A stretch of 47,325 bases of DNA, from the NCBI GenBank assembly GCA_016210245.1, contig JACQUR010000063.1, positions 1 to 47,325 of the forward strand, in the 5' to 3' direction. Of the stretch, positions 25,576 through 45,446 are shown piece by piece (the stretch's first letter is position 1; every line of letters begins with the position of its first letter). The position numbers and the translations under genes were made by a program. Origin of the DNA: Chloroflexota bacterium (GTDB lineage: Bacteria > Chloroflexota > UBA6077 > JACQUR01). A model generated the notes under the pieces. It ran no database searches and had not been told where the DNA came from. It saw only the letters and a program-made list of their open reading frames with translations.

Positions 25576-25647
25576 GTGCTGAGTGCTGAGTCCTGAGTGA
25601 AGCCGCGGGACCTCTACTCAGCACTCAGCACTCAGCACTCAGCACTG
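25564..25647. repeat. heptamer-repeat hairpin: (CTGAGTS)x5 - loop - (CACTCAG)x4
   Basis: The left arm 25564-25599 starts in the last codons of the DUF2085 gene. The right arm 25614-25647 ends 5 nt before the ccmE RBS. About 31 bp stem with two C:C mismatches. Confidence 0.9.
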
Positions 25648-25661
25648 AAGGAGAGAGGAGG

Positions 25662-28046: not shown

Positions 28047-28093
28047 AGGGGACAAGCGGAGAAACCGGGCATGGTCCCCCATCGTGAAGTGGA

Positions 28094-28290: not shown

Positions 28291-28381
28291 TCGAGTTGTC
28301 GAGTCATCCCCCCTCCACTCCAGTCTCCGGGAGAGGCACGGCGTGCCGTGCCCGCACTCCAGGCACGAGTTGGTTACCCGC

Positions 28382-30256
28382 ATGAGCAGCTTGCAAGGTC
28401 TGACCGCTCTCGTCTACGGTGCCGTGTTCGCTCTGGCGCTCCTCGGCTCCGCTGCGCTCACGCCGCTGGTCGGGCGCCTGGCCACCGCGCTCGGGGTGGT
28501 CGCCCTGCCCCGCCGCGATCGCTGGCACAAGGCGCCCACGCCGCTGCTGGGCGGAGCGGCGATCTACGCCGCCTCGGTCACCGCGATCCTGACCTTCGCG
28601 GTCGTCGACGTGCGCATGGCGGCCGTGCTGGCGGGCGCCTCGCTCCTGTTCGCCACTGGCCTGCTGGACGACATGTACCGCCTGCGTCCCCACACCAAGC
28701 TGCTCGTCCAGATCGGCGCGGCGTGCGTGCTGATCATCGGCGGGGTCAAGGTGGAGAGCGTCACCCTGGCGGCAGTCGCGGTCCCGCTCACGATCTTCTG
28801 GGTAGTCGGGCTGACCAACGCCTTCAACCTGCTGGACAACATGGACGGCCTGGCCGCGGGCATCGCCTCGATCACGGCGCTGGTGTTGTTCGTGTTCAGC
28901 GCCGGCCTGGGCAACGGCGCCACCGCCATCCTGTCGCTGGCCGTCATGGGCGGCGCCCTGGGGTTCCTGGTCCACAACTTCCACCCGGCCCACATCTTCA
29001 TGGGCGACTCCGGCAGCATGTTCATCGGCTTCGTGCTGAGCGCCATCACCTTGCTGGGCACTCGGGAGATGGCCTCGGACGTGATCCTCACCCTGCTCGT
29101 GCCGGTGGCCATCATGGGCCTGCCGATCTTCGATACCACCCTGGTCACGGTCGCCCGCAGCCTGAGCGGGCGGTCGATCGCCCAGGGAGGGCGCGACCAC
29201 ATCTCCCACCGCCTGGTCGCCCTGGGGCTGAGCGAGCGCCAGACGGCGCTGGTCCTCTACCTGATCGCCGCCGCCTTCGGCACCCTGGCGCTCCTCTCCC
29301 GCTCGCTCGGTCTGTGGCCGACGGTTGGCCTGGCCACCGTGATGCTGGCCGCGACCGCGGTGTTCGGCGCCTTCCTCGGCCAGGTGCGCATGTACTCGGA
29401 GGACCGGCTCTTGCGGCAGGTCGACCGCGATCCCGGGTCGATCCAGACCACCATCGGCGGCGCGCGGTTCTACAAGCGCGAGGTCGCCCAGGTGCTGCTC
29501 GATGCGCTGCTCGTGGGCGCGGCCTACCTGGGCGCCTTCCTGCTCAAGTACGGCCTCGCGTTCACCAGCCAGGACGTTGCCGCGCCCGGCCTGCCTATCC
29601 CCTGGCCGCGTCTCTTCGCCGAGTCGCTGCCCCACGTCCTCCTGCTCCAGGTGGTGGCGCTGCTGGTCTGCCAGGCCTATCGCGGCATGTGGCGCTACGT
29701 GGGAGTGCGCGACCTGCTGGTGGTCCTGCAGGCCACCACCCTTGGCGCGCTCGTCTCCGTGGTGCTGGTGCCACTGCTCCTGCGACACGAGGTCTTCCCC
29801 CGCTCGCTGTTCGTCATCGACTGGCTGCTCCTCTCGGTGCTCCTGGTCGGCTCTCGCGCTTCCTTCATCATCCTGGCGGACCTGTTCCGCCGAGTGCGGC
29901 GCTCCCTGGCGCCGCGGGTGCTCATCGTCGGCGCCGGCGACGCTGGCGAGATGGTGCTGCGCTTCATGCTCCGCACAGGGCGCCAGACCTATTACGCGGT
30001 GGGGTTCCTGGACGACGACCCCGCCAAGGGACGCCGCGCCATCCACGGCGTCGAGGTGCTGGGTCCGGTCGAGCAGTTGCCCGCCATCATCGCCCAGGAG
30101 CAACCCGGCCTGGTCATCGTGGCCCTGCCCCCCCACTCCGCGGCCAGCGAGCGGGTGCTCAGCTACTGCGCCGCCCAGGGCATCCCTTCGTACGACGCCG
30201 CCGCCTTCGTGCAGCGCGAGCTGAGCCTTGTACCAGCGCCTCCGCATCGGAATTAG
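28382..30256 (+). CDS. WecA/MraY-family (GT4) polyprenyl-phosphate sugar-1-phosphate transferase fused to extra TMs and a CoA-binding/Rossmann-like C-terminal domain
   Basis: ...GLLDDMYRL..., ...NAFNLLDNMDGLAAG..., ...FMGDSGSMFIGF.... The C-terminal part ...VLIVGAGDAGEMVLRFM...YYAVGFLDDDPAKGRRAIHGVEVLG... resembles the N-terminal domain of CapD/WcaJ-type enzymes. Confidence 0.8.
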   Translation: MSSLQGLTALVYGAVFALALLGSAALTPLVGRLATALGVVALPRRDRWHKAPTPLLGGAAIYAASVTAILTFAVVDVRMAAVLAGASLLFATGLLDDMYRLRPHTKLLVQIGAACVLIIGGVKVESVTLAAVAVPLTIFWVVGLTNAFNLLDNMDGLAAGIASITALVLFVFSAGLGNGATAILSLAVMGGALGFLVHNFHPAHIFMGDSGSMFIGFVLSAITLLGTREMASDVILTLLVPVAIMGLPIFDTTLVTVARSLSGRSIAQGGRDHISHRLVALGLSERQTALVLYLIAAAFGTLALLSRSLGLWPTVGLATVMLAATAVFGAFLGQVRMYSEDRLLRQVDRDPGSIQTTIGGARFYKREVAQVLLDALLVGAAYLGAFLLKYGLAFTSQDVAAPGLPIPWPRLFAESLPHVLLLQVVALLVCQAYRGMWRYVGVRDLLVVLQATTLGALVSVVLVPLLLRHEVFPRSLFVIDWLLLSVLLVGSRASFIILADLFRRVRRSLAPRVLIVGAGDAGEMVLRFMLRTGRQTYYAVGFLDDDPAKGRRAIHGVEVLGPVEQLPAIIAQEQPGLVIVALPPHSAASERVLSYCAAQGIPSYDAAAFVQRELSLVPAPPHRN

Positions 30257-30261
30257 ACCGA

Positions 30262-30324
30262 GTCGACAGTCAACAGTCGACAGTCGACAGGTGGACTCTC
30301 GACTGTCGACTGTTAACTGTCGAC
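30262..30324. repeat. heptamer-repeat hairpin: (GTCRACA)x4 - loop - (TGTYRAC)x3+
   Basis: Left arm GTCGACA GTCAACA GTCGACA GTCGACA (30262-30289). Right arm cTCGAC TGTCGAC TGTTAAC TGTCGAC (30298-30324). It starts 6 nt after the upstream stop codon. Confidence 0.9.
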
Positions 30325-32503
30325 TAAGGCACGATCGCTGGCTGGTCGCGCTGCTGGTCGGCGTGGCCATCGCCTCCCGCGTCTTCACCCACCCGCTGTA
30401 CGCCAACGAGCCCAGCTCGGACGAGTACTTCTACGGCTTCTACGCGATCGAGCTGGCGCGAGCGCTGCTCGGCCTGTCCGACCACGGGCTCAACGACCTG
30501 GCCGCCAACAGCCGCTTCATCGGACTCCTGGTCGCCTCGGCGCTGCCCATTGTCCCGCTGGACCCCATCTCCCTGGGGCGCACGCTCCAGGCGCTGTGCA
30601 ACGCGGCCACCGTCCCCCTGGTCTACGCCCTCGGGCGCGCGATCGGCTTGCCACCCCAGCCCAGCTTCGCCGCCGCCGTGCTGCTGCTGGCCATGCCGGA
30701 GACGTGGGAGACGGCCTGGCGGTTCTGGCCGGATAGCCAGGCCGCCTTGCTGGCGCTGGCCAGCCTGCTGGCGCTGGTCCGCCTGGTCCAGCGCCCGGGC
30801 CTGGCCCGGGCGCTCGTGGCGCCGCTGCTGCTGGCAGCCACCTTCCTGACCAAGGAGTACGCGGCCGTTGCCACCCTGCCCGCGCTCGTGGGCGGCGGAG
30901 GCCTGGCCGCGGTCTCGTTGCTGCTCGGCGGCCGGCGCAGGAGTGGCCGGCGCGCGCTGCTCGCGCTGGCCCTGGTGGCCCTCCCTGTGGTGCTGGCCGC
31001 CATGGCGCTGCTGGGCGCGCCTCGGCTGCTGGATCTGCTCAAGCCAACCCCGCTCTACGGTCCGGCTGCGCGCACCCTGCTGCCCGCCAACCGCCTGCTG
31101 GCTCAGCTCGCCTCGCTCGACGAGCGCCTGCCCGACTACCTCGCCGCCCTGAGCCGCCAGTTCGGGCCGAGCGCCTTCGGCGCCGGCTTCGTCCTGTTCT
31201 GGGCGATCGGCACGGTCGTCCTTGTTGCGACGGCCGCGCGCGCCCTCCTGGCCGGGCGGACTCGCCCCTGGCGCGCCGCGCTCTGGGCGCTGGTGCTGGT
31301 GCTCTGGGCGCCCGGGCTCTTCTTCGGCTGGGCGCTGGCGTGGGAGCTGGTCCAGGGCTCGGTGGTGGCCCTGGCGATCCTGGTCCTGGGCGCGGCGCTC
31401 GCCAGCGCGAGCGCGTTCCGGTCGGCGCAGCCGGCCTCTTCCCCGGAGGGCTTCAGAGCAAGTTCCGGAGGGGTCGAGCCCGGCCCGGTGGGGCGGGCGT
31501 CTCTGCCCGCCCATCGCGCTCGCACCCGGCACGTGGCCGACCAAGTCGTCGAGCCCGCCCCACCGGGCCGGTGCGTCCGCCCCATGCCGCCGGGCTCGAT
31601 CCATACGAGAGCCGCTCCGGCGGCAACGTCGGGGATGGAGTGCAGCTCCCTTTCGGGCTGGCGGTGCTGGGGGCCTTCGTCTCCACCTTCGTCCTGCTGC
31701 GCTTCATCGTGTGGGCCGCCCCCAACCTGTTCGCGGCCTTCACGCCGCGCCCATTCCAGCCCACCTTCCCCGCGCTGGCCCTCCTGGCCGGCTGGGGGCT
31801 GGCCGCCACCGCCGGGGCCCTGGCCTGGCCCCTGCAGCGGCTTGCACACACGGGCTCACCCTCTCGACCGACTGCTGGGGCGCGCTGGCTGCCCGGCCTG
31901 GACGCGCTGGCGCAGTCGGTGATCTTCGCTGCCTTGATCGTGGGCACGCTGGTCGTCCTGATGCCAGCCCGCGACCACCTGGGCACCGCCTCCCTGCTCG
32001 GGCGGCGCGCCGACCGCGTGGGTGACCTGCAGACGGCGGAGGGACTGCGGATTACTGCGCTGGTCGAGGCGGAGCGCTGGCTGCAGGCCAACCTCCAGCC
32101 CAGCGACAGCGTGCTCACCAGCATGCCCCGCCACCTGGCCTGGTACGCCCGCACCGGCGTGGACGGCTACCTCAACACGGTCACCACCGGTGAGTTGGCC
32201 CGCGAGTGGCCGGAACGGTGGGGCAAGATCCTCCAGTTGCTCGCCCAGCCCTCGGCCATCGATTACGTGATCGACTTCAACCTCGACTGGACGCGCCCCC
32301 AATCGAGCGAGGCGCGCGCCTGGTACGCCCTCTACCGCTGGCTGCGCACCCGCCCCTACCTGGAAGAGGTCTACAACCGCCCCGACCCCAACGGGCGCGT
32401 CGTCTTGTACGCCTTCCGCAACCACCGCTGGGCGCTGTCCCCCAGCTATGAGGACCGGGAGGAGGCGAGGGCAGCGCAGTTGGCGGCGGGTCGGGAATCG
32501 TAG
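30291..32503 (+). pseudogene. GT-C (ArnT/PMT_2-like) membrane glycosyltransferase whose frame changes across an internal palindromic insert
   Basis: N-part (frame of 30228): ...THPLYANEPSSDEYFYGFYAIELAR... plus many TMs, up to ~31420. C-part (frame of 31340): ...LPFGLAVLGAFVSTF... TMs plus a soluble tail to 32503. The two are separated by a repeat-rich ~200 nt. The start codon is uncertain (GTG 30291). Confidence 0.55.
31480..31571. repeat. nested palindromes inside the GT-C gene
   Basis: CCGGCCCGGTGGGGCGGG (31480-31497) pairs with CCCGCCCCACCGGGCCGG (31554-31571), 18 bp perfect. Inner palindrome GGGCGGGC-gtctct-GCCCGCCC at 31491-31512. Confidence 0.85.
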
Positions 32504-32604
32504 AGGGTCCTGGTGCTACGGTCTTCGTGCCCGGGTTGAACCGCACCGCTTCCCCGCTCGGCACTGCTGGGTGCAGACGACGATCTTCATGCCCCTCCAG
32601 CCTC

Positions 32605-32799
32605 GTCCCGGAGTCCTGGGAGGAGACCGCCGAGGAGCTACTGGCCCAGCATGACGACCAGGACTTCAGCTACGTGGACGCGACCTCGTTCGTCGCGATG
32701 CGCCGTCTCGGGCTGCAGGACGCGTTTGCCTTCGACCACCACTTCGCCATCCTCGGCTTTGCCCTCGTCGGCGACCAGGGCCGAGGCCACGGTCTGTGA
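32605..32799 (+). pseudogene. PIN-domain (VapC-like) toxin, C-terminal half only
   Basis: ...SWEETAEELLAQHDDQDFSYVDATSFVAMRRLGLQDAFAFDHHFAILGFALV matches the C-terminal half of PIN toxins. The N-terminal acidic-residue half and an antitoxin gene are missing. Confidence 0.55.
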
Positions 32800-32921
32800 G
32801 GACCGCGGTCATTGGGCGCGCCGCTCGTGCTCCCTGCTCTTGCGCACCAGGTCGGCGGCGGTCAGTGGAGAGCATCGGTGGAGGTCTGGCAGGGCGAGGT
32901 GCAGCCTGGCAAACCGCCGCT

Positions 32922-34573
32922 ATGCTCTTGAAAAGGTTCTGTCCGTACCTGAACGCGCTGGTCGCCTACAAGAGCCGCTGCTACTTCATGGCCTGCGGTA
33001 AGGTGGGCGAGCGTTACGGCATCGACAGTTGGGCGACGGGGGTGGCCAACGTCCGCGGCGCGGAGGGTACCTGGCGCGACGCCGTGGACGGGGCGCTGGG
33101 GCGCAACCCCATCGCCCACGGCTCGGTGGACGGGACCATTGCCCTGCACGTGGACGTGCCGCCGGGTGGCACGGAGGTGGTCCACCACTGGCTGTGCGCC
33201 GCAGTTGGCTACTTCGAGGCCGAGGCGCTGGAGAAGCTGGTGCGGGAGCGGGGGCCGGAGCCGCTCGAGCAGCGGAGCCGTGACTACTGGCGCCTGTGGG
33301 CCAACCAGGAGGCGCGCGACTTCGGCGGGCTGTCCGACGAGCTGGTCGAGCTGTACAAGCGCAGCCTGCTCGTTATCCGCACTCAGATCGACAACCGCGG
33401 CGCGATCATCGCCGCCAACGACTCAGATATCACCGAGTACGCGCGCGACACCTACAGCTACATGTGGCCGCGCGATGGCGCCCTGGTGGCCATGGCGCTG
33501 GACCGCGCCGGCTACCACGAGGTCGCCCAGCGCTTCTTCACCTTCTGCCAGCAGATCGTCTCCCCGGAGGGCTTCTTCTTCCACAAGTACACTCCCTTCG
33601 GGGCGCTGGGCTCGAGCTGGCACCCCTGGATCGACGTCCAGGGGCGGCCCCAACTGCCGATTCAGGAGGACGAGACCGCCCTGGTGCTGGTGGCGCTGTG
33701 GCACCACTTCCAGCACACCCGCGACGTGGAGGTGATTCGCCCCTTCTACCGACCATTGATCCGCGGCGGGGCGGACTTCCTGGTCGGCTTTCGCGACCCG
33801 CGCACCGGACTGCCCACCCCGTCCTGGGACCTGTGGGAGGAGCGGCGCGGCGTCCACGCCTGGACCGTGGGCGCAGTCTGGGGCGGCCTGCAGGCCGCGG
33901 CCGAGTTCACGCAGGTGTTCGGGGACACAGCGCTGAGCGAGCGCTACCGCGACGCGGCGGCGGAGATCAAGGCCGCGGCGCGGGCCTACCTGTATGACCC
34001 GGCGCAGGCCCGCTTCACCCGCACGCTGATCCTGCGCGACGAGGGCTTCGAGCGCGACACGACGCTGGATAGCAGCATCAGCGGGCTCTTCCTCTTCGGC
34101 ATGTTCGAGCCCCACGACCCGATGCTGGCGCGCACGATGGCCCAGTTGCGGGAGCGCCTGGGGGTGAAAACGGCCGTGGGGGGCGTGGCGCGCTACGAGG
34201 GCGACTCCTACCAGCAGGTGAGCCGCGACCTGGCCCAGGTGCCCGGCAATCCCTGGTTCATCTGCACCCTCTGGCTGGCCGACTACGACATCGCCACCGC
34301 CGAGCGCCTGGAGGACCTGGCCGGCCCGCTGGAGGTGCTGGAGTGGGTGCGCTGCCACGCGCTGCCCAGCGGCGTGCTGGCCGAGCAGGTACACCCCTAC
34401 AGCGGCGCGCCAGTATCGGTCTCGCCACTCACCTGGAGCCACGCCGCCTTCGTCAACACCATCCACCTCTACCTGGACAAGCGCCGCCTGCTGCTGCGCG
34501 CCCGCCTGCACCAGGGCCTCCAGAGCGACGACGCCCTGCTGGAGGCGCTGCGCAGCGTGGCGCCGGAGCGTCA

Positions 34574-34577
<4 letters not shown>
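32922..34577 (+). CDS. glycoside hydrolase family 15 (glucoamylase/glucodextranase-like), lacking ~150 N-terminal residues
   Basis: ...[17 protein letters not shown]..., ...[12 protein letters not shown]..., ...[10 protein letters not shown]..., ...DLWEERRG..., ...ARYEGDSY.... The first in-frame ATG (32922) falls inside what is normally the N-terminal beta-sandwich domain. Confidence 0.75.
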
Positions 34578-34700
<123 letters not shown>

Positions 34701-34783
34701 GTCCTCCGCCCCCCGGCCCCCATTCTGCTATCATGCCCCAGGACGCCGCGGCAGCGACCCAGTCAACTCGGGGGTGGGGATCG

Positions 34784-36004
34784 ATGACCATCAACTGGCA
34801 GCAGCTCTTTGCCGAGCGGACGGCCCGCATGCAGGCCTCCGACATTCGCGAGATCCTGAAGGTAATCGCCCAACCAGACATCATCTCCCTGGCCGGGGGC
34901 CTGCCGGCTCCGGAGCTGTTCCCGGTGGACCACTTCCGCCGGGCCTTCGAGTGGGTGTGGGAGACCAACGGCCAGGCCGCGCTGCAGTACAGCATCACCG
35001 AGGGCTACCCGCCGCTGCGCCAGTTCCTGGCCGCTCGCATGGCCCGCACCTTCGGCATCCGGACGACTGCCGAGGAGATCCTGATCACCAACGGCTCGCA
35101 GCAGGGCCTCGACCTGCTGGGCAAGATCTTTCTCGACCCGGGTGACAAGGTGGCGCTGGAGAGGCCGAGCTACCTGGGTGCTATCCAGGCCTTCGACCAG
35201 TACCAGGCAGAGTACGCCATCGTCCCCATGGACGAGGACGGCATGCAAACCGAAGCGCTGGAGGAGCTGTTGCAGCGCGAGACGAGGGTCAAGCTCATCT
35301 ACGCGGTGCCGAACTTCCAGAACCCGAGCGGTCGGACCATGAGTCTGGAGCGCCGCCAGCACCTGGTCCGTCTCTCGGCGAAGTTCGGGGTGCCCGTCGT
35401 GGAGGACGACCCCTACGGCGAGCTGCGGTATGAGGGCGAGCCCCTGCCCAGCCTGAAGTCGCTCGACACGGCCGGGAGCGTGATCTACCTGGGCACCTTC
35501 TCGAAGATCCTGGCCCCGGGCTTTCGCCTGGGCTGGGTGGTCGCCTCCGGCGCGGCCTACGAGCAGTTAGTGCTGGCCAAGCAGCCGACCGACCTGCAGA
35601 CCGCCACCGCCTCCCAGATGGCCTTCTACGAGGTGTGCAAAGACGGCTTCGTCGACCAGCACGTGGAGCGGATCAAGGAAGTGTATGGCGAGCGGCGCCT
35701 GACCATGCTGCGCGCCATGCAGACCTACTTCCCCGAGGGCGTCCGCTGGAGCAATGCCCAGGGCGGCCTGTTCTTCTGGGTGATGCTGCCCGAGCACATC
35801 GACGCGCGCGAGCTGCTGGTGGACGCGATCAAGGAGAAGGTCGCCTTTGTGGCCGGCCAGGCCTTTCACGCGGACGGCAGCGGCAGGAACACCATGCGCC
35901 TGAACTTCTCGAACGCCACCCCCGAGAAGCTCGAGGAGGCGATCAAGCGCCTGGGCCGGACGATCGAGCGGCGGGTGGGCGTCACGAACGTGGTGAGGGG
36001 CTGA
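34784..36004 (+). CDS. PLP-dependent aminotransferase, class I/II (2-aminoadipate/aromatic aminotransferase-like)
   Basis: ...ASDIREILK..., ...[14 protein letters not shown]..., ...[11 protein letters not shown]..., ...[15 protein letters not shown]... (PLP lysine), ...RLNFS.... Confidence 0.85.
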
Positions 36005-36105
36005 CGACTCGCAAGTTGGCGAAGCCGGTTTTCACTGGTGTGCCTCCTTCTCCAAGCTGGAGTCGTCCGAGTACTCGATCGGTCATGGATTGCACCTCTC
36101 CTCTC

Positions 36106-36588
36106 TCAATTCAGTCCGCTCAGGTCCAGGGTGTCCAGGAAGGCAACCAGCGGGCCGCCCAGCGACTCCGCCTCGGCTCTGGCCGGCGGGAACAGGGCGC
36201 CGTCTGCCAGCAAGGGCAGTTTGAGACACACCGCGAGCGCCAGCGCTTGCCCGGGCTCGGTGGGCACCTCGATCGAGCCGCTCGCTATTTCGATCGCGAG
36301 CGACGCGCGCAGCAGGCCCGCCCCGTGCGCCGCCAGATGCACGGCCGCGAGGCGGCCGCCGAGCGCCTCGGCGATGCGGCTGGCCAGGCGCAGGGCCTGG
36401 CTTCGGCTCGTCTCCTGGTCGCGCAGCTCGTGCAGCAGCGCATGGCCGTCGCTGGCGCAGAGGCACAGGCACAAGACCCCGCCATCCGAGGAGGAGCCGC
36501 GTCGGACCACGTGCGCCATCGCCTGCCGCGGGTCGCCGACGCACATGCGGACGCCGCGCACCTCCACCTCTGACCAGCCCGGGCGCAT
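36106..36588 (-). CDS. bifunctional nuclease (BFN/DUF151)-like protein
   Basis: 160 aa. ...EVEVRGVRM...VLCLCLCASDGHALLHEL... and ...LRASLAIEIASGSIEVPTEPGQALALAVCLKLPLLAD... follow the DUF151 pattern loosely. Confidence 0.45.
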   Translation of the reverse strand: MRPGWSEVEVRGVRMCVGDPRQAMAHVVRRGSSSDGGVLCLCLCASDGHALLHELRDQETSRSQALRLASRIAEALGGRLAAVHLAAHGAGLLRASLAIEIASGSIEVPTEPGQALALAVCLKLPLLADGALFPPARAEAESLGGPLVAFLDTLDLSGLN

Positions 36589-36746
36589 TACTCAACCTCC
36601 CAGGAAACGGAGGTGGCCCGGCGGAGGACGGCAAGCCGCCTCTGAAGCCCACGGGCGATGGCGGCCAGGCGCGCCGCAACGGCGGCTGCCGGCGTGTCCC
36701 GGACGGAGCGCAATGGGAGCTGGAGCATGCCTTGAGCGCGATACAT
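36588..36746 (-). CDS. 52-aa hypothetical protein translationally coupled to the BFN-like gene
   Basis: GAGGGAGG RBS, then ATG at 36746. MYRAQGMLQLPLRSVRDTPAAAVAARLAAIARGLQRRLAVLRRATSVSWEVE. TAATG overlap with the next start. Confidence 0.4.
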   Translation of the reverse strand: MYRAQGMLQLPLRSVRDTPAAAVAARLAAIARGLQRRLAVLRRATSVSWEVE

Positions 36747-36785
36747 GAGAACCTCCCTCGGCTCGGGAGAGCCGGTCCAGATGAG

Positions 36786-36819
36786 TAACGGCTAACGTTA
36801 CAAGTTAGCATATACTAAC
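36786..36819. promoter_or_regulatory. AT-rich cluster of overlapping inverted repeats (GTAAC/GTTAC, GCTAAC/GTTAGC, GTTAG/CTAAC)
   Basis: gtaacGGCTAACgttacaaGTTAGCatataCTAAC lies 40-75 nt upstream of the 36746 start. A possible TGTACA-N16-TAGTAT promoter is on the minus strand. Confidence 0.35.
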
Positions 36820-36913
36820 CCATCGGACTGCCGTGTACACCCGCCACATGGACGGTTTTTCGCAGAGTGCGCTCTGGTGCTCTGCGACTGGTGATTCGCA
36901 GGGTACGCTGGTT

Positions 36914-36973
36914 GTCCGAGCCGCGACCGTGAGGGAGCGCGGACCTCCGCTCCCTCACGGTCGCGGCTCGGAC
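36914..36973. repeat. REP palindrome, 26-bp arms, same family as 20369-20430
   Basis: GTCCGAGCCGCGACCGTGAGGGAGCG - cggacctc - CGCTCCCTCACGGTCGCGGCTCGGAC. Confidence 0.9.
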
Positions 36974-37535
36974 AGAATCCTTCGCGGCTCGGCGTCTCCG
37001 CGCTGAGTCGTTGAGTGGTGGCGCTCGCGATAGCCGATCAGCCGCGCGGCGTTCAGCACCACTGCTACGGTGCTCGCGTTGTGGACGATGGCGCCCACCA
37101 GGGGCGACATGAGGCCGACGGCACTGAGGGTGATGCCCAGGACATCGACGCCGATGGCGGCGGCGCGGCGCTCAGCAGCGCCCCGCCGGCCAGCAAGCGA
37201 CCTGCGAACAGGCCGCCCAGGACGACGCCGCTCACCGTGAGGCGGAGGAACTGTCCGACCAGGCCAGGCTCCTCAGGGCCGGTCCGCCGCGCGGGCAGTT
37301 GGGTCGTCGGTTGAGCGCTAGCAACCGCGCGGGCGATCGCCTCCACGCCGATCGCCCGCGGGTCGAACTCCACCAGCACGCGACCGCTGGCCGGGTTCGC
37401 CTGCACCCGGCGCACCCCGCGCAGGGCCGCCACGGCCAACTCGATGCCCCGGGCGCGCTCGGCGCTGGCCCACAGCCCCGCTACTTTGAGCCGCGCTCGG
37501 CCGGGTAGGGCGGCGACCACTACCACCTGGCGCAT
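36955..37535 (-). pseudogene. P-type ATPase reduced to its N-terminal HMA-like domain plus its last TM/C-terminus (large internal deletion and frameshift)
   Basis: N-part: MRQVVVVAALPGRARLKVAGLWASAERARGIELAVAALRGVRRVQANPASGRVLVEFDP.... C-part in another frame: ...IGVDVLGITLSAVGLMSPLVGAIVHNASTVAVVLNAARL.... Everything between is missing. Confidence 0.65.
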
Positions 37536-37560
37536 GCTTCCCTCCCTGGCCTCGCTGCCT

Positions 37561-37733
37561 CACGGTCGCGGCTCAGCCAGCGGTGGCACAGGCGAGCTGC
37601 CTGTGCCACCGGACGGTCGCGGCTCAGCCAGCGGCAGCACAGGCGAGCTGCCTGTGCCACCGGACGGTCCTCCTGGTGGCACAGGCGGCTCGCCTGTGCC
37701 GCGACCTCCGCTCCCCCACGGTCGCGGCTCGGA
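37561..37733. repeat. composite repeat block: two ~52-bp tandem units, each carrying GGTGGCACAGGC-gagct-GCCTGTGCCACC, plus a third variant and a REP half-site
   Basis: Units at 37561-37613 and 37614-37664, with a variant at 37665-37733 ending in CCACGGTCGCGGCTCGGAT. Confidence 0.9.
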
Positions 37734-37785
37734 TTACACCCATCCCTCAGATGACGATCGACAGACCGCTGTGGAGGAAAGGTAC

Positions 37786-38022
37786 TCAGCCGCCCGGGGG
37801 CCGCCGCAGCCAGCGCCACAGGCCGACGATGGCCCGCGCCGCCAGCGCCGCCCCGACGGCCACGGCGAAGATGCGCGCCAGGGAGGCGGTCCGCTCGACC
37901 GGACGGCCCCACTGCTCCCAGGGGATCGTGGCCTCCTCGCCGCCCTGGTACCCCCGCGCTCGCGCGCTCATCGCGGCCGCCTCGTCGCCCATGCGGTCCT
38001 GGGCGCGCTCAGCTCCGGACAT
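37786..38022 (-). CDS. small hypothetical protein with a C-terminal TM
   Basis: 78 aa. GGGAGG about 11 nt upstream of the ATG. ...IFAVAVGAALAARAIVGLW... is a TM segment. Confidence 0.35.
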   Translation of the reverse strand: MSGAERAQDRMGDEAAAMSARARGYQGGEEATIPWEQWGRPVERTASLARIFAVAVGAALAARAIVGLWRWLRRPPGG

Positions 38023-38107
38023 GGTTCAGATGCCTCCCGGTGAGATCTCGCCCTGCTCGGCGCCACGCCCCGACAGGTGGACGGTTTCTCGAACGAAGGG
38101 CGCCGCC

Positions 38108-38323
38108 TCAGCCCTGGTGCGAGGCCACCAGGCCGTGTTCGTGGGCGTAGACGGCCAGTTGCACGCGCTCGCTCAGCCCGAGCTTCTGGAGGATCTGGCT
38201 GACGTGCCACTTGGCCGTCGTACGGCTGACGCCCAGGACGCGGGCAATCTCGGCATTGGTATGGCCCTGGGCGACGAGGGCCGCCACCTCGCGCTCGCGC
38301 GGCGTCAGTGCGGCGAGCGACAT
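38108..38323 (-). CDS. stand-alone LuxR/GerE-type HTH regulator
   Basis: MSLAALTPREREVAALVAQGHTNAEIARVLGVSRTTAKWHVSQILQKLGL.... The ATG at 38323 lies 4 nt after the fbpC-like stop; the ORF extends to 38359. Confidence 0.75.
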   Translation of the reverse strand: MSLAALTPREREVAALVAQGHTNAEIARVLGVSRTTAKWHVSQILQKLGLSERVQLAVYAHEHGLVASHQG

Positions 38324-38327
38324 CGTT

Positions 38328-39413
38328 TCACTCGCCCCGCTCATCGGGCGCGGCACCACCGCGCGCGGCCGGAAAGACCACCGCCTCGCCCTGGACCTCC
38401 ACCCGCACTCGCTGTCCGAGGCGCAGGGCGCTCTGGTGGCGGCGTCGCCCGACCAGCGAGCGCAGGGTGGCGCCCGAGTCGAGCTGGAGGGTGAACATCT
38501 GCTCGTGGCCGTAGAACTCGCGGGCTACCACCCGGCCATTGCCACTCTCGTCGGCGATCGGCAGGATCATTTCGGGGCGGAGCATCAGGTCGACCGCGCC
38601 CTCGGGCGCCTCGGGCGCGGCGACCGTGCCCAGCTCGCACACGACGGCTTCCCCGTGCGCCCTGCCTGGCAGGAAGTTGGCGTCGCCCACGAAGGCAGCC
38701 ACCTCCCGGGTGGCCGGGCGGCGATACAGCTCCTCCGGGCTGGCGAGCTGGACGACGCGGCCGGCCCAGAGCACCGCCACCTCGTCGGCCAGGCTGAGCG
38801 CCTCCTCCTGGTCGTGGGTCACGAAGATGGCGGTCGCTCCGGCCGCGCGGAGGATGTCGCGCACCTCGGCCCGCACGCGGGCGCGCAGGTCGGCGTCCAG
38901 GTTGCTGAACGGCTCGTCCAGCAGCACCACGGCTGGATTGGGCGCCAGCGCCCGGGCCAGGGCCACCCGCTGCTGCTGCCCCCCGGAAAGCTGGTGCGGA
39001 TAGCGGCGCTCGAAGCCGGCCAGTCCCACCAGCCCGAGCAGTTCCTGCACGCGGGCTCTGCGCGCGCCGTCGCGCCCGTTCAGGTGGTGGAGGCCAAAGC
39101 CCACGTTCTCGGCTACGGTCAGGTGAGGGAAGAGGGCGTAGTCCTGGAAGACCATGCCCACGCCCCGACGCTCGGGCGGCACGTACACGTCCTGGCCGGC
39201 CACCGGGCGCCCGGCCACCCGGATCTCGCCCGCCTCGGGCTGCTCGAAGCCAGCGATCAGGCGCAGCACAGTGGTTTTGCCGCTGCCGGACGGGCCGAGC
39301 AGCACCACGATGTTGCCAGCCGCGACCTGGAGCTGCAGACGGTCGACGGCCAGGACGCCGCTGGCGAAGCGCCTGGTGACGCCCCGGAGGTCGATGACTG
39401 GGCCAGGCGCCAT
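38328..39413 (-). CDS. ABC transporter ATP-binding protein (Fe3+/polyamine importer type)
   Basis: Walker A GPSGSGKTT, Q-loop, signature LSGGQQQRVALARAL, Walker B VVLLDEP, and a C-terminal TOBE-like domain. Confidence 0.9.
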   Translation of the reverse strand: MAPGPVIDLRGVTRRFASGVLAVDRLQLQVAAGNIVVLLGPSGSGKTTVLRLIAGFEQPEAGEIRVAGRPVAGQDVYVPPERRGVGMVFQDYALFPHLTVAENVGFGLHHLNGRDGARRARVQELLGLVGLAGFERRYPHQLSGGQQQRVALARALAPNPAVVLLDEPFSNLDADLRARVRAEVRDILRAAGATAIFVTHDQEEALSLADEVAVLWAGRVVQLASPEELYRRPATREVAAFVGDANFLPGRAHGEAVVCELGTVAAPEAPEGAVDLMLRPEMILPIADESGNGRVVAREFYGHEQMFTLQLDSGATLRSLVGRRRHQSALRLGQRVRVEVQGEAVVFPAARGGAAPDERGE

Positions 39414-39414
39414 G

Positions 39415-41061
39415 TCAGCCCAAGGCTACCGGACTGGAGCGCGGGCGTACCAGCAGCACGGCCAGCCAGCCCAGCCCCACCAGGGCGATCAACAGCAATG
39501 CCACCACCGAGGCCCGCGGGTCGACCCCGACGTCCATGGTATGCACCCAGATGCGCACCGGCAGAGTATCGAAGCCGGGCGGACGCAGCACCAGGGTGGC
39601 GGCCAACTCGCGTATCGAGAGGATGAAGGCCATCAGCCAGGCGCCGGCCAGGCCGGGCGAGGCCAGCGGGAGCACCACCTCGCGGGCGGCACCCAGCGGA
39701 GTCCGGCCCAGCACCCGCGCGGCCTCCTCCATCGCGGGGGCGATCTGGCTCAGGGCCGCCTGGGCCGCCTGGTGGGCCGGCCCGGCAAACAGCACCAGGT
39801 AGGCCACGGCCAGCAGGGCCGCGGTGCCGTAGAGACCGGGCAGGAGCGCGAGCGAGAGGCCCACCAGGCTCAAGCCAAGCACCGTGCCGGGGATAGCATA
39901 GCCCGCCTGCAAAATGGCCCCGGGCAAGCCGCCGCGGCCCTTCCACTGCCCCCAGGCGGTGACCAGCGCCAGCCCCAGGGCCAGCCAGGCGCCCGTAGCG
40001 GCCACCGCGAGCGAGTTGCGCACGAAGGGCCACTGCTCGGCCAGGAAGCCAGCCGCCACCAGCGGGCCGAGCTTGGATGCCTGGGTGGCGAGGACGGCCA
40101 GCGGGAGCGCCAGGGTGAGTGCGACCGCGCCCAGCAGGTAGGCGAGGGCGGCGAGCTTCCAGCGGCCCAACGGCTGGCGCCGCGATCCCAGGCCGACGGA
40201 AGAGCGCTGGCTGCCCACCTGGGTGTAGCGCGCTCCGCCCAGGCCCCAGCGCTGCACCAGCAGCAGCAGCAGCCCCACCATCACCAGCAGGGCCAGCGAC
40301 GAGCCGGCCGAGTCGGGCAGGCTCAGGCCGGCTAGCAGTTGGTTGTAGATGACCGTGGTGAAGGTGCGCACCCGGAGCAGGGAGACGACCCCGAAGTCGA
40401 CCCAGGCGTAGAGGAACACCAGGAACCCGCCGGCCAGCAGGGCCGGGCGGAGCAGTGGCAGGGTGACCCGCCAGAAGACGCCGGCAGGGGAGAGGCCCAG
40501 GCTGCGCGCGCTCTCCTCCAGGGCCGGACTCGAGCGCTCCAGCGCGCTCTGGACGGTGATGAACACGTAGGGCGCACTGAAGACGCCCAGCACGAAGGCT
40601 GCGCCAGCGGGGCTGTACAGCAGCGGCGGAAAGAGCACCTGGCTTGTGGACAGCCCGACCAGCCTGGCCAGTCCCTCGTGTACCAGGCCGGTCGGCGCCA
40701 GCAGCGCCGCATAGGCGATGGCGCCCACGTAGGGCGGCACGGCCAGGGGCAGCGGACCGAGCGCCTGGAAGAGGCGTCGGCCGGGCACGTCGGTGCGGGT
40801 CACCAGCCAGGCCCACGGCACGGCCAGGGCGAACGCCAGCAGGGTGGCGCCGCCGGCCAGCAGCGCCATGCGCAGCACCAGGGTTGGCAGCTCCATACGA
40901 GCCAGCGTCAGGGCCAGGTCTGGCAGCCGGGCCTGCAGCGCCAGCCAGACCAGGTACCCCAGCGGCAGCAGCATGGGCAAGGCCAGCACCGCGGCCGGGT
41001 CCGGCAGACGGCCGCGGTGGACGCTGCGGGTCAGTAGGCGGTAGTGGAGCGCGAGCGCCAT
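39415..41061 (-). CDS. iron(III) ABC transporter permease, duplicated (two-domain) type
   Basis: About 548 aa with two BPD-transporter halves (...EESARSLGLSP... and ...MEEAARVLGRTP...). ATG 41061 is preferred because the longer ORF runs through the repeat hairpin. Confidence 0.85.
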   Translation of the reverse strand: MALALHYRLLTRSVHRGRLPDPAAVLALPMLLPLGYLVWLALQARLPDLALTLARMELPTLVLRMALLAGGATLLAFALAVPWAWLVTRTDVPGRRLFQALGPLPLAVPPYVGAIAYAALLAPTGLVHEGLARLVGLSTSQVLFPPLLYSPAGAAFVLGVFSAPYVFITVQSALERSSPALEESARSLGLSPAGVFWRVTLPLLRPALLAGGFLVFLYAWVDFGVVSLLRVRTFTTVIYNQLLAGLSLPDSAGSSLALLVMVGLLLLLVQRWGLGGARYTQVGSQRSSVGLGSRRQPLGRWKLAALAYLLGAVALTLALPLAVLATQASKLGPLVAAGFLAEQWPFVRNSLAVAATGAWLALGLALVTAWGQWKGRGGLPGAILQAGYAIPGTVLGLSLVGLSLALLPGLYGTAALLAVAYLVLFAGPAHQAAQAALSQIAPAMEEAARVLGRTPLGAAREVVLPLASPGLAGAWLMAFILSIRELAATLVLRPPGFDTLPVRIWVHTMDVGVDPRASVVALLLIALVGLGWLAVLLVRPRSSPVALG

Positions 41062-41066
41062 CGCTC

Positions 41067-41132
41067 GTTGGAGGTTGGAGGTTGAAGGTTGGAGAGAGCT
41101 CTCCAACCTTCAACCTCCAACCTCCAACCTCC
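41067..41132. repeat. heptamer-repeat hairpin: (GTTGRAG)x4 - GAGC loop - (CTYCAAC)x4+
   Basis: 29 consecutive Watson-Crick pairs (41067-41095 with 41100-41128). The variant unit GTTGAAG is mirrored by CTTCAAC. It lies between the fbpA-like stop (41132-41134) and the fbpB-like start (41061). Confidence 0.95.
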
Positions 41133-42214
41133 TATCCGCCGAGCACCGGCGTGAACATCTGCACCGCGCGCTTCTCGGCTTCGGACAGCTTCACCCAGTC
41201 CATTTGCGGGCGTTTGATCTGGTCGATCGGCTTTACCCCGGGGGCCGTGGCCGCGCCCAGGGCCACGCCGGGCACCAGCGGGAACTCCTGCTCCTGGGTG
41301 GTCAGCGGCTCCTGGCCCGCCGGGCTGAGCGCGAAGTCGACAAACGCCCGGGCCTGGGCGCTGTTGGCCGCACCCTTCAGGATGGCCACGGTGAGCGGCG
41401 TCACCAGCGTGCCGATCTCGTTGGCCCCCTGGTCCGGGTAAATCAGCCCCACCGACGCCCCCTCCTTCGCCTTGGGCACGTAGTAGTAGTGGTTGACCAG
41501 CCCGACCGCCGCCTCGCCCCGGGCGACCGCGTTGGCCACCTCGGTGTGATTGGCCAGCACCTTAACCCCGTTGGCTTTCAGGTCGTCCACGTACTTCATG
41601 GTGAACTCCTCGCCCCGCTCGAGCAGCAACGACGCCAGCCACAGGCGCACCCCGCCCTCGCGGATGGAGGCCATGGCCACCTTGCCCTTCCAGCGCGGCT
41701 GGGTGAGGTCGAACACCGACCCGGGCGTGTCGCCGGCGGCCACCTGGGTGGTGTTGAACATGATGTTGCGGGAGCGGCCGATGACGCCCGTCCAACTGCC
41801 ATCGGCAGCTTTGAACTCGGGCGGCACCTTTGCGGCGTTGGGCGAGGCGTAGGACTCGAGCAGACCCTTCTGGCGCAGCAGCTCCGTGCCGGCCGCATCG
41901 GTGGTGAAGAACACGTCGCCGCGCGGGCTGCCCTTCTCCTGCTCGATCAGCAGGGCCAGCTCGCCGGGCGCGCCGCTCTTGAGCGTCACCTGGACGCCGC
42001 TCGCCTGCTGGAAGGCCGACACCAGCGGCTTCATCAAGTCCTCTTTGCGGGCTGAATAGACGGTCAGCGTGCCGCCGAGCTTCTCGGCCGGCTTCGTCTC
42101 GGTCGTGGCCGCCTTGCTTGCTGGCGGCGGGGTCGCGGGAGCCGCGGTGGTGCAGGCCGTGGCCAGCAGCATCACGGCCGCCAACCAGACGCGAGGCGTG
42201 AACAGACGAACCAT
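41132..42214 (-). CDS. Fe(3+) ABC transporter substrate-binding lipoprotein
   Basis: Lipobox LLATAC. ...LTVYSARKEDLMKPLV..., ...DVFFTTDA..., ...GLVNHYY... typical of FbpA/AfuA-type binding proteins. GAGGAGG RBS. Confidence 0.85.
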   Translation of the reverse strand: MVRLFTPRVWLAAVMLLATACTTAAPATPPPASKAATTETKPAEKLGGTLTVYSARKEDLMKPLVSAFQQASGVQVTLKSGAPGELALLIEQEKGSPRGDVFFTTDAAGTELLRQKGLLESYASPNAAKVPPEFKAADGSWTGVIGRSRNIMFNTTQVAAGDTPGSVFDLTQPRWKGKVAMASIREGGVRLWLASLLLERGEEFTMKYVDDLKANGVKVLANHTEVANAVARGEAAVGLVNHYYYVPKAKEGASVGLIYPDQGANEIGTLVTPLTVAILKGAANSAQARAFVDFALSPAGQEPLTTQEQEFPLVPGVALGAATAPGVKPIDQIKRPQMDWVKLSEAEKRAVQMFTPVLGG

Positions 42215-42217
42215 AAG

Positions 42218-42290
42218 TCCTCCTCAAGCAACGAGCGCGGGCGCTCTGAACCTACAAGATAGCGTCTACGTAGCCAGGCTATGAGGCTGC
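42218..42290 (-). promoter_or_regulatory. conserved ~73-nt 5' leader (copy 1), shared with 45116-45190
   Basis: Minus strand: AGCCTcATAgCCTGGCTacGTAgAcGCTATCTtgtAgGtTCAGAGCGCCcGCGCTCGTTGCtTGAgGAGG. About 75% identical to copy 2, with the same distance to the SD. Confidence 0.5.
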
Positions 42291-42340
42291 ACGAACGTAC
42301 GGCGTTCGCCGGCGCTGGCCAACAGGGGCGTCAGGGTACA

Positions 42341-42378
42341 CCGAGTCGCGACCGTGAGCGAGCGGAGCGCGGCCCTCA
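42341..42378. repeat. REP half-copy (CCGAGTCGCGACCGTGAGCGAGCGGAGCGCGGCCCTCAC)
   Basis: Variant of the 20369 family. It overlaps the 3' end of the FTR1 gene. Confidence 0.7.
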
Positions 42379-43884
42379 CCCAGACACTGGCGCTTGTCCG
42401 GTGCGCTCGCGCTGCGCGGGCGCATGGAGCCCGCTCGCAACGAGTACGGCCAGCGCGGCCAGCAAGAGCACGCCCTGGACGGCGGTCGTCTCCCAGGTGG
42501 GGAACAGGCCCAGCAGGTCATTGCTGGGCAGGTAGCCAGACGGGGTGGCTCCCAGGACGCCGGCCACCTGCAGGGCGTGGATGCCGGAGCCGACGAACTT
42601 GAAGGCCAGGTAGTAGATCAGCACGCTGGTGCCCAGGAAGAACGGCCGGATCGGCACCCGCACGCCGAAGACGAGCATCAGCACGCCGAGCACCGCCAGC
42701 CCGGCGGCGCCGAGCCCCAGGCCGAGCGCCAGGTCGCTCAGGGCGATCGCGGGGGCGATGCCGAGGTAGAACAGCACCGTCTCGGCTCCCTCCCGGAAGA
42801 CGGCCAGGAAGGCGATCAGCGCCAGCGACAGGAGGCCGTTGCGGGCCAGGGCGGCAGTGCTCTGGTCGTGAATGTACCGCTGCCAGGCGCCCAGGCTCGC
42901 CTTGGAGTGGAGCCAGTAGCTCACGTAGACGAGCATGGCCGCGGCTACCAACCCCGTCAGTCCCTCCAGCAGTTCCCGGTTGGCCCCGGCGGACGCCTGG
43001 GAGAAGACCAGGTTGACGACAAAGGCGACCACGAGGCTGGCCGCGATGCCCGCGCCGCTGCCAGCCCAGATCCAGCGCGTCTTATCGCCGTGATTCGTCT
43101 TCCTGAGGAAGGCCAGCAGCGCCGCGACCACGAGCAGCGCCTCCAACCCTTCCCGCAGCAGGATGATCGCGGCGTCGAACACGCCGTAGCGGGCCTCCGC
43201 CTCGGCAAACGGCGCCAGGTCCGCCTTCATGCGAGTCAGCGTGCTCCGCGCCGCAGCCGGGTCAGGCGAGGCCTGGGTGAGCAGCGCGTACGCCTTCGCC
43301 ATGTTGTTCTCGGTGTCGGCATACGCCTGGGCCGACTTCACCTTGACCAGCCCCTCCACCTCGGTCCAGTCGCGCCGGAAGGCGTCGACTTCGGCAGCCG
43401 CGCCGGCCAGGTCGTTGGCCGCCAGTCTGGCCTGGGCCTGGTCCAGGTGGGCGACGAGCGTGGGGAGCGTCACCGGCCCCTGGGACACGGCTGGAGCCGG
43501 CGGAGCTGCCGCTGGCTGGCCGCCGATGAAGGCGGCGCACTGCGCCCGCAGCGCCTGCAACGCGGCCCGCGCCCTGGCCGCGTCGAACGGCTCGGCCTGC
43601 AGGGCGTACCTGGCATCGCCCATCGCGTCCTCGATCGCCCGGTAGCTGGCCCTCGACTGGGCGCGGATGCCGTCCTCGATCTCGAACCAGCCATCGTCGA
43701 AGGCCCGGTACGCCGCCTGGGCGCCCGCGCGATCGCCCGACTCGAGTCGGGCGATCGCGCCATCGACCTGTCTCGCCAGGTCGGCCAGTTGCTCGGCCGG
43801 GGTCGCGGCCATGGCCAGCGTCGGAAGGAGCAGGAGCGCCAGCGCCACCAGCGCTGGAACCCATCGCCGCATAGCACACATCAT
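42376..43884 (-). CDS. FTR1/EfeU-family iron permease with a ~220-residue N-terminal periplasmic helical domain
   Basis: Signal peptide. Two helical modules (...AYRAFDDGWFEIEDGIRAQSRASYRAIEDAM...; ...VDAFRRDWTEVEGLVKVKSAQAYADTENNM...). Then 7 TM with LREGLEAL and FREGAET (REXXE) motifs. Confidence 0.85.
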   Translation of the reverse strand: MMCAMRRWVPALVALALLLLPTLAMAATPAEQLADLARQVDGAIARLESGDRAGAQAAYRAFDDGWFEIEDGIRAQSRASYRAIEDAMGDARYALQAEPFDAARARAALQALRAQCAAFIGGQPAAAPPAPAVSQGPVTLPTLVAHLDQAQARLAANDLAGAAAEVDAFRRDWTEVEGLVKVKSAQAYADTENNMAKAYALLTQASPDPAAARSTLTRMKADLAPFAEAEARYGVFDAAIILLREGLEALLVVAALLAFLRKTNHGDKTRWIWAGSGAGIAASLVVAFVVNLVFSQASAGANRELLEGLTGLVAAAMLVYVSYWLHSKASLGAWQRYIHDQSTAALARNGLLSLALIAFLAVFREGAETVLFYLGIAPAIALSDLALGLGLGAAGLAVLGVLMLVFGVRVPIRPFFLGTSVLIYYLAFKFVGSGIHALQVAGVLGATPSGYLPSNDLLGLFPTWETTAVQGVLLLAALAVLVASGLHAPAQRERTGQAPVSG

Positions 43885-45190: not shown

Positions 45191-45258
45191 CTAATGTACC
45201 GCGTTAGCCCGTACTTGTCAAGAGGGGCCAGCGACCCAATTTTCTTTCGGTCCTGGCT

Positions 45259-45320
45259 GGTGGGGGCTGCCGCCCTGGAGGGCGGACCCAGGCCCGCCCT
45301 CCAGGGCGGCAGCCCCCACC
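45259..45320. repeat. REP palindrome with 27-bp perfect arms (GGTGGGGGCTGCCGCCCTGGAGGGCGG / complement)
   Basis: 45259-45285 pairs with 45294-45320. Partial copies (CAGGGCGGCAGCCC) occur at 45352-45365 and near 47305-47318. Confidence 0.9.
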
Positions 45321-45446
45321 GGGTGCGTCGGATTATTTCCGCAACCTTCACCAGGGCGGCAGCCCAGGCCACGGCAAGGACAACGCCCCGCGGGTCCCGG
45401 GGCTTGCGCAGCGGATGAAAGGGGATAGGACCAACCCCAAGCGGTG

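Follow-up and report, generated by a model that had tools for sequence, protein, structure and literature searches.

Four intergenic hairpins, referred to here as loci A to D, stand out in a contig from a metagenome-assembled genome (MAG) of a Chloroflexota bacterium (JACQUR010000063.1, assembly GCA_016210245.1). This complete contig of 47,325 nt, with 69.9% G+C, is the window of our analysis. All four hairpins are built alike: a 7-nt unit repeated about four times leads into a loop, behind which the reverse complement of that unit is again repeated about four times (12.6 in the 3′ arm of locus C). A preliminary description, made from the letters of the sequence, had proposed this architecture, and all four loci indeed read that way. 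Each locus has its own unit (CTGAGTG at A, AGTCGAC at B, CAGTAGG at C, and GGAGGTT at D), always with 4 G/C of 7, as had been pointed out, and never with a GGG tract. Tentatively, we consider these elements to be palindromic heptanucleotide microsatellites that were made in place and are not mobile copies. Once transcribed, they would form intercistronic duplexes that probably behave as repetitive extragenic palindromic (REP) elements do. We assign this reading a probability of about 0.45.

Eight period-7 arrays are present in the window, compared to a mean of 0.26 per shuffle in 200 dinucleotide-preserving shuffles of the whole window, and every one of them belongs to a pair. Reverse-complement pairs occur three times in strict form, in addition to locus C with its decayed arm, and were found in none of the 200 shuffles; for periods of 5, 6, 8, and 9 nt, the window contains no such pairs. 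At all four loci and at the one clean pair from a relative (contig L002, see below), the upstream gene has its stop within the array or 0-5 nt ahead of it, which bears out the earlier statement that the elements begin at or near a stop. All four hairpins are found between co-directional genes, where they occupy nearly the whole spacer, and the next start codon either follows after 5-32 nt or lies in the loop. The preliminary description had counted two of them as intercistronic; this position stands, while the count rises to all four. Arm length is similarly uniform, as nine out of ten arms (L002 included) consist of 4.0-4.9 units (28-34 nt), the exception being the 12.6-unit arm of locus C.

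Anatomy of the four hairpins

Locus D lies on the minus strand at the fbpA|fbpB junction, between the genes of an iron-type solute-binding protein and an ABC permease. Tandem Repeats Finder calls arrays at 41067-41094 (7 nt x 4.0) and 41101-41132 (x 4.6), and an inverted-repeat search pairs 41067-41096 with 41099-41128, resulting in 30-nt arms that are 100% complementary with 2 nt in between. The predicted RNA forms a 29-bp stem with a 4-nt loop, matching the perfect stem noted before, at -61 to -62 kcal/mol (z = -11.7 and -9.8 against 200 shuffles, 0/200 as good). The solute-binding protein ends in FTPVLGG*, a C-terminus that is conserved in relatives, and the permease start at ATG 41061 is backed by an N-terminus (MALA...) conserved in three related contigs (L008, L009, and L010); in the NCBI annotation, the permease starts at TTG 41106, within the 5′ arm. 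Read as mRNA, locus D has a 5′ arm composed of perfect Shine-Dalgarno motifs (GGAGG) in series and a 3′ arm of serial anti-Shine-Dalgarno-like CCTCC motifs; the permease start itself lacks a Shine-Dalgarno sequence. Duplication of the original ribosome-binding site may have given rise to the unit of this locus. A function as anti-Shine-Dalgarno decoy was considered for the four loci and rejected, as these two motifs are present in the arms of D only.

At locus A, arrays are called at 25565-25598 (7 nt x 4.9) and 25616-25646 (x 4.4), and the 31-nt arms are 94% complementary. The ccmE gene starts at ATG 25662, 13 nt past the hairpin, with GGAGAGAGGAGG as its Shine-Dalgarno sequence. Locus B is called as a single array (30262-30325) because GTCGAC is self-complementary; its arms are 30 nt long and 93% complementary. 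The loop of this hairpin contains GTG 30291, the NCBI start of a GT39/PMT_2 glycosyltransferase gene (MBI4491666.1) and the sole in-frame canonical start before the first transmembrane helix, bar a TTG within the upstream gene. With this start, the 3′ arm of locus B would be translated. Locus C has arrays at 34572-34602 (7 nt x 4.4, 87% matches) and 34613-34700 (x 12.6, 100%), with 34-nt arms that are 88% complementary, and the aminotransferase gene behind it probably starts at ATG 34733. Unit counts in perfect arrays of short-read MAGs are uncertain, and short reads give an unreliable count for this 88-nt perfect array. Folded as RNA, loci A, B, and C have z-scores of -5.6, -8.4, and -4.9, with 0/200 shuffles as good for each.

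Within the window, the units show 3-5 matches out of 7 with one another, like random heptamers, in agreement with the earlier claim that they are unrelated. This claim does not extend to related contigs, since CAGT/ACTG is present in five of the seven units across the window and these contigs, compared to ~5% expected (a post hoc count). Similarly post hoc, AGTCGAC (locus B), AGTCGTC (L002), AGTCAGT (L010), and AGTCAGC (L009) are separated from one another by one or two bases and lie within one or two changes of AGTCRNY. The CAGT/ACTG core is also found in the TAACTGA repeat, and the units CCCCAGT and CAACAGT of the cyanobacterial short tandemly repeated repetitive sequences (STRRs) carry it as well. 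As to the adjacent stop codons, TAG makes up five of the six independent ones (25573, 30254, 34575, and 41132 in the window, 5403 in L002, and 1124 in L009) and is part of the unit in two; it ends 12 of the 40 window genes called from third-position GC and Pfam (p ~0.01, post hoc).

On reading the four loci, we saw neither terminal inverted repeats beyond the arrays nor target-site duplications. Rfam gave no match at gathering score on either strand of the window, a tRNA/tmRNA scan of the window found no genes, and no transposase family was matched by Pfam among the window open reading frames (ORFs) scanned.

Table 1. Coordinates of the hairpin arms, flanking codons, and further palindromes in the window
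Feature	Position	Strand	Remarks
Locus A, 5′ arm: CTGAGTC, CTGAGTG x2, CTGAGTC, CTGAGTG	25564-25598	+	TGA stop of DUF2085 gene (25573-25575) within array
Locus A, 3′ arm: (ACTCAGC) x4.4	25616-25648	+	preceded by 17-nt loop
Locus B, 5′ arm: AGTCGAC, AGTCAAC, AGTCGAC x2	30258-30290	+	array onset 5 nt past TAG (30254-30256) of GT4/CoA_binding_3 gene
Locus B, loop GTGGA and 3′ arm	30291-30328	+	variant GTTAACT mirrors AGTCAAC
Locus C, decayed 5′ arm: CAGTAGG x2, CAGAAAG, CAGAAGG, CAGCAG	34572-34605	+	TAG stop of GH15 gene (34575-34577) in first unit
Locus C, 3′ arm: (CTGCCTA) x12.6	34613-34700	+	units 100% identical
Locus D, 5′ arm (sense strand): GGAGGTT x3, GAAGGTT, GGAGAG	41099-41132	-	inverted-repeat search and direct reading
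Locus D, 3′ arm (sense strand): CTCTCC, AACCTTC, AACCTCC x2, AAC	41067-41096	-	complementary to 41099-41128
TAG stop of solute-binding-protein gene (SBP_bac_11/6/8/1)	41132-41134	-	gene 41135-42214; array abuts stop
ATG start of ABC permease gene (BPD_transp_1)	41059-41061	-	5 nt past hairpin
Non-heptamer palindrome	1643-1712		
Non-heptamer palindrome	9372-9438		
Non-heptamer palindrome	20363-20436		
Non-heptamer palindrome	36913-36974		
Non-heptamer palindrome	37634-37702		
Non-heptamer palindrome	45257-45322		

Occurrence in relatives and known heptanucleotide repeats

The nearest public relatives of the window proteins, which include MBI4491666.1, MBI4491675.1, and their neighbours in the NCBI annotation, come from uncultured Chloroflexota and Thermomicrobiales. 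An exact-protein look-up of the fbpA-like protein matched no contig on record, and the 90% clusters of this protein, the ABC1 kinase, GT39, and the permease have a single member each, and thus provide no second strain. Our sample of relatives consists of ~153 kb of contigs sharing 64-88% amino acid identity in two marker proteins. The scan for heptamer pairs that the preliminary description had suggested yielded one clean pair in this sample, revealing a patchy trait. This pair, in a Thermomicrobiales MAG from another project (L002, 5408-5513), is made of another unit, (AGTCGTC)4.4 and (CTGACGA)4.3, separated by a 46-nt loop; it begins 2 nt past the TAG of a PLD-like gene and is followed by a co-directional dehydrogenase gene. 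In addition, contig L010 opens inside an (AGTCAGT)4 array (1-30), and a degenerate period-7 hairpin with onset CAG TAG (L009, 1121-1181) fills the exact gap between convergent TPR and DtxR-like genes. No heptamer pairs were found in further contigs of relatives at 73-87% identity or in ~200 kb of distant metagenome contigs, and the first 50 kb of the Thermomicrobium roseum megaplasmid contain no period-7 array and no hairpin of >18 pairs. Unpaired arrays, (CAGNAGG)13 in L021 (9440-9531) and (CCTTCTG)5 in L032 (1464-1500), occur in unrelated contigs with 60% and 41% GC, respectively; their units belong to the same family as those of the locus C 5′ arm (CAGTAGG/CAGAAGG).

The fbpA|fbpB spacer allows comparison at an orthologous site, as the flanking codons align cleanly between the window and its relatives. 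Imperfect period-7 hairpins of different sequence occupy this spacer in L008 (88% amino acid identity; CTGAGCC CTGAGGA...) and L009 (82%; GGACTGC GGCCCGA GGCCTGG GGACTGA), while no comparable hairpin is present in L010 (75%) or L001 (72%), and the spacer of L011 (79%) is just 4 nt long. When the three orthologous hairpins are folded together with RNAalifold, 18 of 30 pairs are changed on both sides. We give this no weight as a sign of homology, since all hairpins aligned on their centres would behave in this way; it attests only to the presence of a predicted hairpin at one and the same position in three lineages. For loci A to C, a metagenome scan with the GT4 protein retrieved only distant relatives (<=47% identity, GC 41-71%) and no orthologous junctions. 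Upstream of ccmE, contig L040 has a 37-nt spacer behind a different, non-homologous gene. The trait is real and occurs in independent assemblies; it is restricted to a lineage, turns over fast, and reaches an unusually high density in this genome.

Bacteria have been known to contain heptanucleotide repeats since 1990, and no long simple repeats are more over-represented. The preliminary description knew of no described class of palindromes built from locus-specific heptamers in a high-GC, Chloroflexota-like genome, but inverted heptamer pairs had already been reported from Xanthomonas (Rehm et al. 2015, PMC4692102). Two Xanthomonas genomes contain 183-186 (GGGAATC)n arrays each, and 70-75 times per genome an array is opposed by a second, convergent one on the other strand (PMC4692102). 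The arrays have a mode of four units, are 89-93% intergenic, lie mostly between co-directional ORFs, and show a strong bias to overlap or closely follow the upstream stop; most are transcribed, and they vary in length and sequence between close species (PMC4692102). The preference for four units was interpreted by the authors as G-quadruplex formation, with the i-motif invoked as well (PMC4692102). The window shares with Xanthomonas the convergent inverted heptamer pairs, the ~4 units per arm, and the adjacency to stop codons. In contrast to the single G-rich unit that is used genome-wide there, the units described here are site-specific and not G-rich. Because they lack G-tracts, G-quadruplexes cannot explain the four-unit arms of the window. 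Relative to the Xanthomonas precedent, the novelty lies in a unit that changes with the locus and is not rich in G; for Chloroflexota, no account of locus-specific heptamer palindromes turned up in our literature search.

Other heptanucleotide repeats are more distant in form. As in STRRs and long simple sequence repeats (LSSRs), the 7-nt units of the window are arranged head-to-tail in >=3 copies outside coding frames, but a few units recur genome-wide in those systems, whereas four loci use four units within 47 kb here. The TAACTGA repeats of Beggiatoaceae, Cyanobacteria, and Bacteroidetes are mostly located just upstream of start codons, with one inverted case among 170 sets (MacGregor 2015, PMC4679880). 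STRRs and TAACTGA repeats resemble our elements in being intergenic tandem heptanucleotides with lineage-specific bursts, several of them with the CAGT/ACTG core; they differ in forming direct arrays of few fixed units and not palindromes.

A binding-protein gene followed by a permease gene, as in malE-malF and hisJ-hisQ, is the classical setting of REP elements. REPs and bacterial interspersed mosaic elements (BIMEs) are extragenic palindromes behind a gene (Di Nocera et al. 2013, PMC3733652). In ABC operons, they often follow the gene of the binding protein and shield the mRNA upstream of the hairpin, which makes them a functional analogy for locus D. Unlike the single-locus sequences of tandem units described here, REPs are high-copy, conserved in sequence, tagged with GTAG or CGTC, and mobilized by REP-associated tyrosine transposases (RAYTs). 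Each heptamer hairpin sequence is present once in the window.

Several other classes were considered and rejected. A miniature inverted-repeat transposable element (MITE) does not fit, as neither duplicated flanks nor second copies were seen. Integron attC sites were discarded because GTTGGAG/CTCCAAC-like motifs are found at D only and in reverse order, and because the neighbours form an ABC operon conserved in relatives and are not cassettes. REP/RAYT elements and recoding signals of the selenocysteine (SECIS) or pyrrolysine (PYLIS) insertion type do not apply to all four loci.

Proposed origin, probable effect on RNA, and rival explanations

The anatomy, non-randomness, position, and turnover of the hairpins are observed, and the mechanism of origin and each functional step are inferred. 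A 7-nt unit in a short spacer behind a gene would be amplified by replication slippage. Fold-back or intrastrand template switching, an established mechanism of quasi-palindrome correction, would then copy one arm onto the other, thereby generating perfect arms, a minimal spacer, and mirrored variants; later, the arms would slip or decay independently. As 7 is not a multiple of 3, arrays persist only outside reading frames, and arrays that survive there would abut or supply a stop codon. The unrelated single-locus units, together with the lack of duplicated flanks or extra terminal inverted repeats, point to a local origin and not to transposition. Heptanucleotide simple repeats are in excess in bacteria, which is reportedly ascribed to polymerase slippage by Mrazek et al. 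(2007). The restriction to period 7 in the window agrees with this published excess, and other tandem duplications within the same 47 kb (24 nt x3 and 51 nt x2.1, see below) suggest a slippage-prone lineage.

Copying of one arm from the other had been proposed on the basis of a variant unit at D that is mirrored on the opposite arm (GTTGAAG/CTTCAAC as first described, GAAGGTT/AACCTTC in our sense-strand phase). This variant is present, and locus B contains another (AGTCAAC/GTTAACT); by our own estimate, a mirrored complementary variant would arise by chance in ~1/84 cases per locus. Judged from sequence, these variants argue for putative arm-to-arm copying or compensatory selection. Copying does not hold as a universal rule, as the arms of C are unequal and neither of the two variant units of locus A is mirrored. 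The 4.4 decayed versus 12.6 perfect units at C and the unmirrored variants at A indicate that slippage and decay can also affect each arm on its own. With only 2 nt between its arms, D is better accounted for by a DNA-level palindrome, formed by fold-back or template switching, than by a selected RNA loop. Taken with the decayed hairpins of L008 and L009, loci C and A make a life cycle of birth, homogenization, one-sided expansion, and decay plausible.

Located within co-directional gene pairs, the four hairpins are probably transcribed, and each transcript would fold into a ~30-bp duplex between cistrons. A duplex of this length in a polycistronic RNA is both a good barrier to exonucleases and a good substrate for double-strand-specific RNases. 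It could therefore act as a REP-like barrier to 3′-5′ decay or as an RNase III-type processing site, uncoupling the upstream from the downstream cistron. At loci B and D, where the stem covers or abuts the downstream initiation region, it may also partially occlude the start codon and dampen translation. A REP-like role in mRNA stability or processing, as suggested in the preliminary description, is plausible by analogy from position.

Some observations weigh against this picture of locally made, REP-like duplexes. The hairpin is dispensable, given the three relatives without a comparable one at fbpA|fbpB and the short ccmE spacer of L040. Antisense folds are the more stable ones at four loci, namely A, B, C, and the L009 hairpin labelled L009-2, and sense folds at two (L008 and L009-1), so that there is no G-U signature of selection on mRNA structure. 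Slippage alone leaves unexplained why nine of ten arms end at 4.0-4.9 units, and also why four of the six non-heptamer palindromes of the window have stems of 27-29 pairs. Finally, our survey of this genome covers 47 kb, one contig of the MAG.

As the sense/antisense test lends no support to RNA-level selection, a neutral by-product stays a strong rival. The hairpins would then be mutational debris of a high-rate lineage, i.e. products of slippage and template switching that are tolerated in short non-coding spacers and have no role. The patchy distribution, with four elements in the 47-kb window versus one clean pair in the 153 kb of relatives, is what such debris would look like, as are the three relatives that lack a comparable hairpin at the orthologous site, the missing G-U bias of the sense strand, and the additional tandem duplications and fragmentary genes of the window. 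It fits less well with the tight clustering of arm length at ~4 units, with the hairpin kept at fbpA|fbpB in three lineages despite sequence turnover, and with the restriction of all elements to tight post-stop spacers (between co-directional genes in the window and L002, and between convergent genes at L009 1121-1181) and not to larger, promoter-bearing gaps. We regard it as unlikely on balance, though as the most serious of the alternatives.

Long stems of high-GC Gram-positive bacteria have been suggested to terminate transcription without a U-tract, and the hairpins might similarly act as terminators or attenuators that set read-through into the downstream gene. Like intrinsic terminators, they form stable stems (-50 to -62 kcal/mol) directly after stop codons; two further hairpins, the one at L009 1121-1181 and the non-heptamer palindrome at 9372-9438, lie between convergent genes, and the region shows no enrichment of canonical terminators. 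A consensus scan of 24000-43000 found two terminator-like sites versus 4.6 expected by chance, neither of them a long heptamer stem (one is a 7-bp minus-strand stem in the loop region of locus C, 34597-34618). Their stems of 29-32 bp, however, contrast with the 5-15 bp of intrinsic terminators, none of the four is followed by a T-run, and they lie inside presumptive operons. Co-expression would be expected of the genes that two of them separate (solute-binding protein and permease; ccm genes). The downstream start lies within the loop at B as annotated, and at D it follows 5 nt past the stem, too close for a separate promoter to fit in. The earlier judgement, made for two of the loci, that a plain terminator role is unlikely agrees with the missing canonical terminator tails, and termination without a U-tract seems to us quite improbable as well.

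A role at the level of DNA, as a cruciform or as a site for a protein that reads the ~30-bp palindrome or 7-bp-phased contacts, with consequences for supercoiling, replication, or recombination, is very improbable. It would account for the near-perfect Watson-Crick arms with 2-5-nt spacers at D and B, the strongly favoured DNA folds (z = -13.3 and -8.2), the pairing quality without strand bias, and the stem lengths of most non-heptamer palindromes, which are close to those of the heptamer stems. Against this, no candidate binding protein is known, a sequence-specific binder is excluded by the different unit at every site, and loops of 17 nt (A) and 46 nt (L002) disfavour cruciform extrusion. 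Least probable of all are MAG assembly artefacts or copies of a mobile element (MITE, REP/RAYT, or integron attC), which the broken-looking genes of the contig, the poorly countable array of locus C, and the break of contig L010 within an array might suggest, but which do not explain why the architecture recurs in assemblies of other projects (L002, and degenerate in L008 and L009), why the elements are internal, between intact conserved gene ends, why units are unrelated between loci with no target duplications seen, or why GTTRRR/YYYAAC-like motifs are found at D only, in an order opposite to attC.

Other repeats in the window and wider meaning

Besides the heptamer hairpins, the window contains six long palindromes of other sequence (Table 1), five of them intergenic, with stems of 19-29 pairs. 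Counting all hairpins of >=18 pairs, there are 11 in the 47-kb window, compared to five in ~203 kb of relatives and T. roseum. Two of the palindromes (20363-20436 and 36913-36974) are copies of one REP-like perfect palindrome with the arm CCGAGCCGCGACCGTGAGGGAGCG, a stem of 27-29 bp, and 8-nt loops that differ. Unlike the heptamer hairpins, this is a genuine dispersed family. The other four palindromes are near-perfect, with stems of 21-29 pairs. Part of its arm, ACGGTCGCGGCTC, recurs in a tandem repeat of 51 nt x2.1 (37562-37669; 96% matches), the units of which form hairpins. A second tandem repeat, a perfect 24 nt x3 (26814-26885), lies in frame in the CcmH gene (8 aa x3). Several genes look broken. 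The GT39 protein (30291-31922) departs from its homologues after ~residue 440, which looks like a frameshift (the homologue search gave two distant matches only, which we used for the N-terminus and the probable frameshift); CcmF (25985-26755), after ccmE, is represented by its C-terminal part only; and a copper P-type ATPase (12964-15968) is present in fragments, which comprise two HMA domains plus positions 1-54 of E1-E2_ATPase and, in a separate ORF, a HAD-like piece. These genes reflect either decay or assembly errors.

For annotation, the hairpins call for caution, as two start codons were placed automatically inside them (30291 and 41106). From perfect through mismatched and one-arm-expanded hairpins to decayed orthologues, they also provide a natural series for the birth, homogenization, and loss of palindromic microsatellites. 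Moreover, a Xanthomonas-like architecture made from four unrelated, non-G-rich units means that architecture and sequence can be dissociated, and suggests that the hairpin, or the process that generates it, is the common denominator. One might speculate that there is a structure-defined, sequence-independent class of ~28-30-bp perfect hairpins, built from any stop-adjacent heptamer and including the inverted GGGAATC pairs of Xanthomonas, although we hold this to be doubtful. If true, the rule of four units per arm would reflect the need for, or a ceiling on, a ~30-bp duplex and not G-quadruplex formation. Such a constraint could come from a factor that binds double strands, of RNase III type or other, or from a limit to how stable a palindrome may be, and the non-heptamer palindromes of the window would be subject to it as well.

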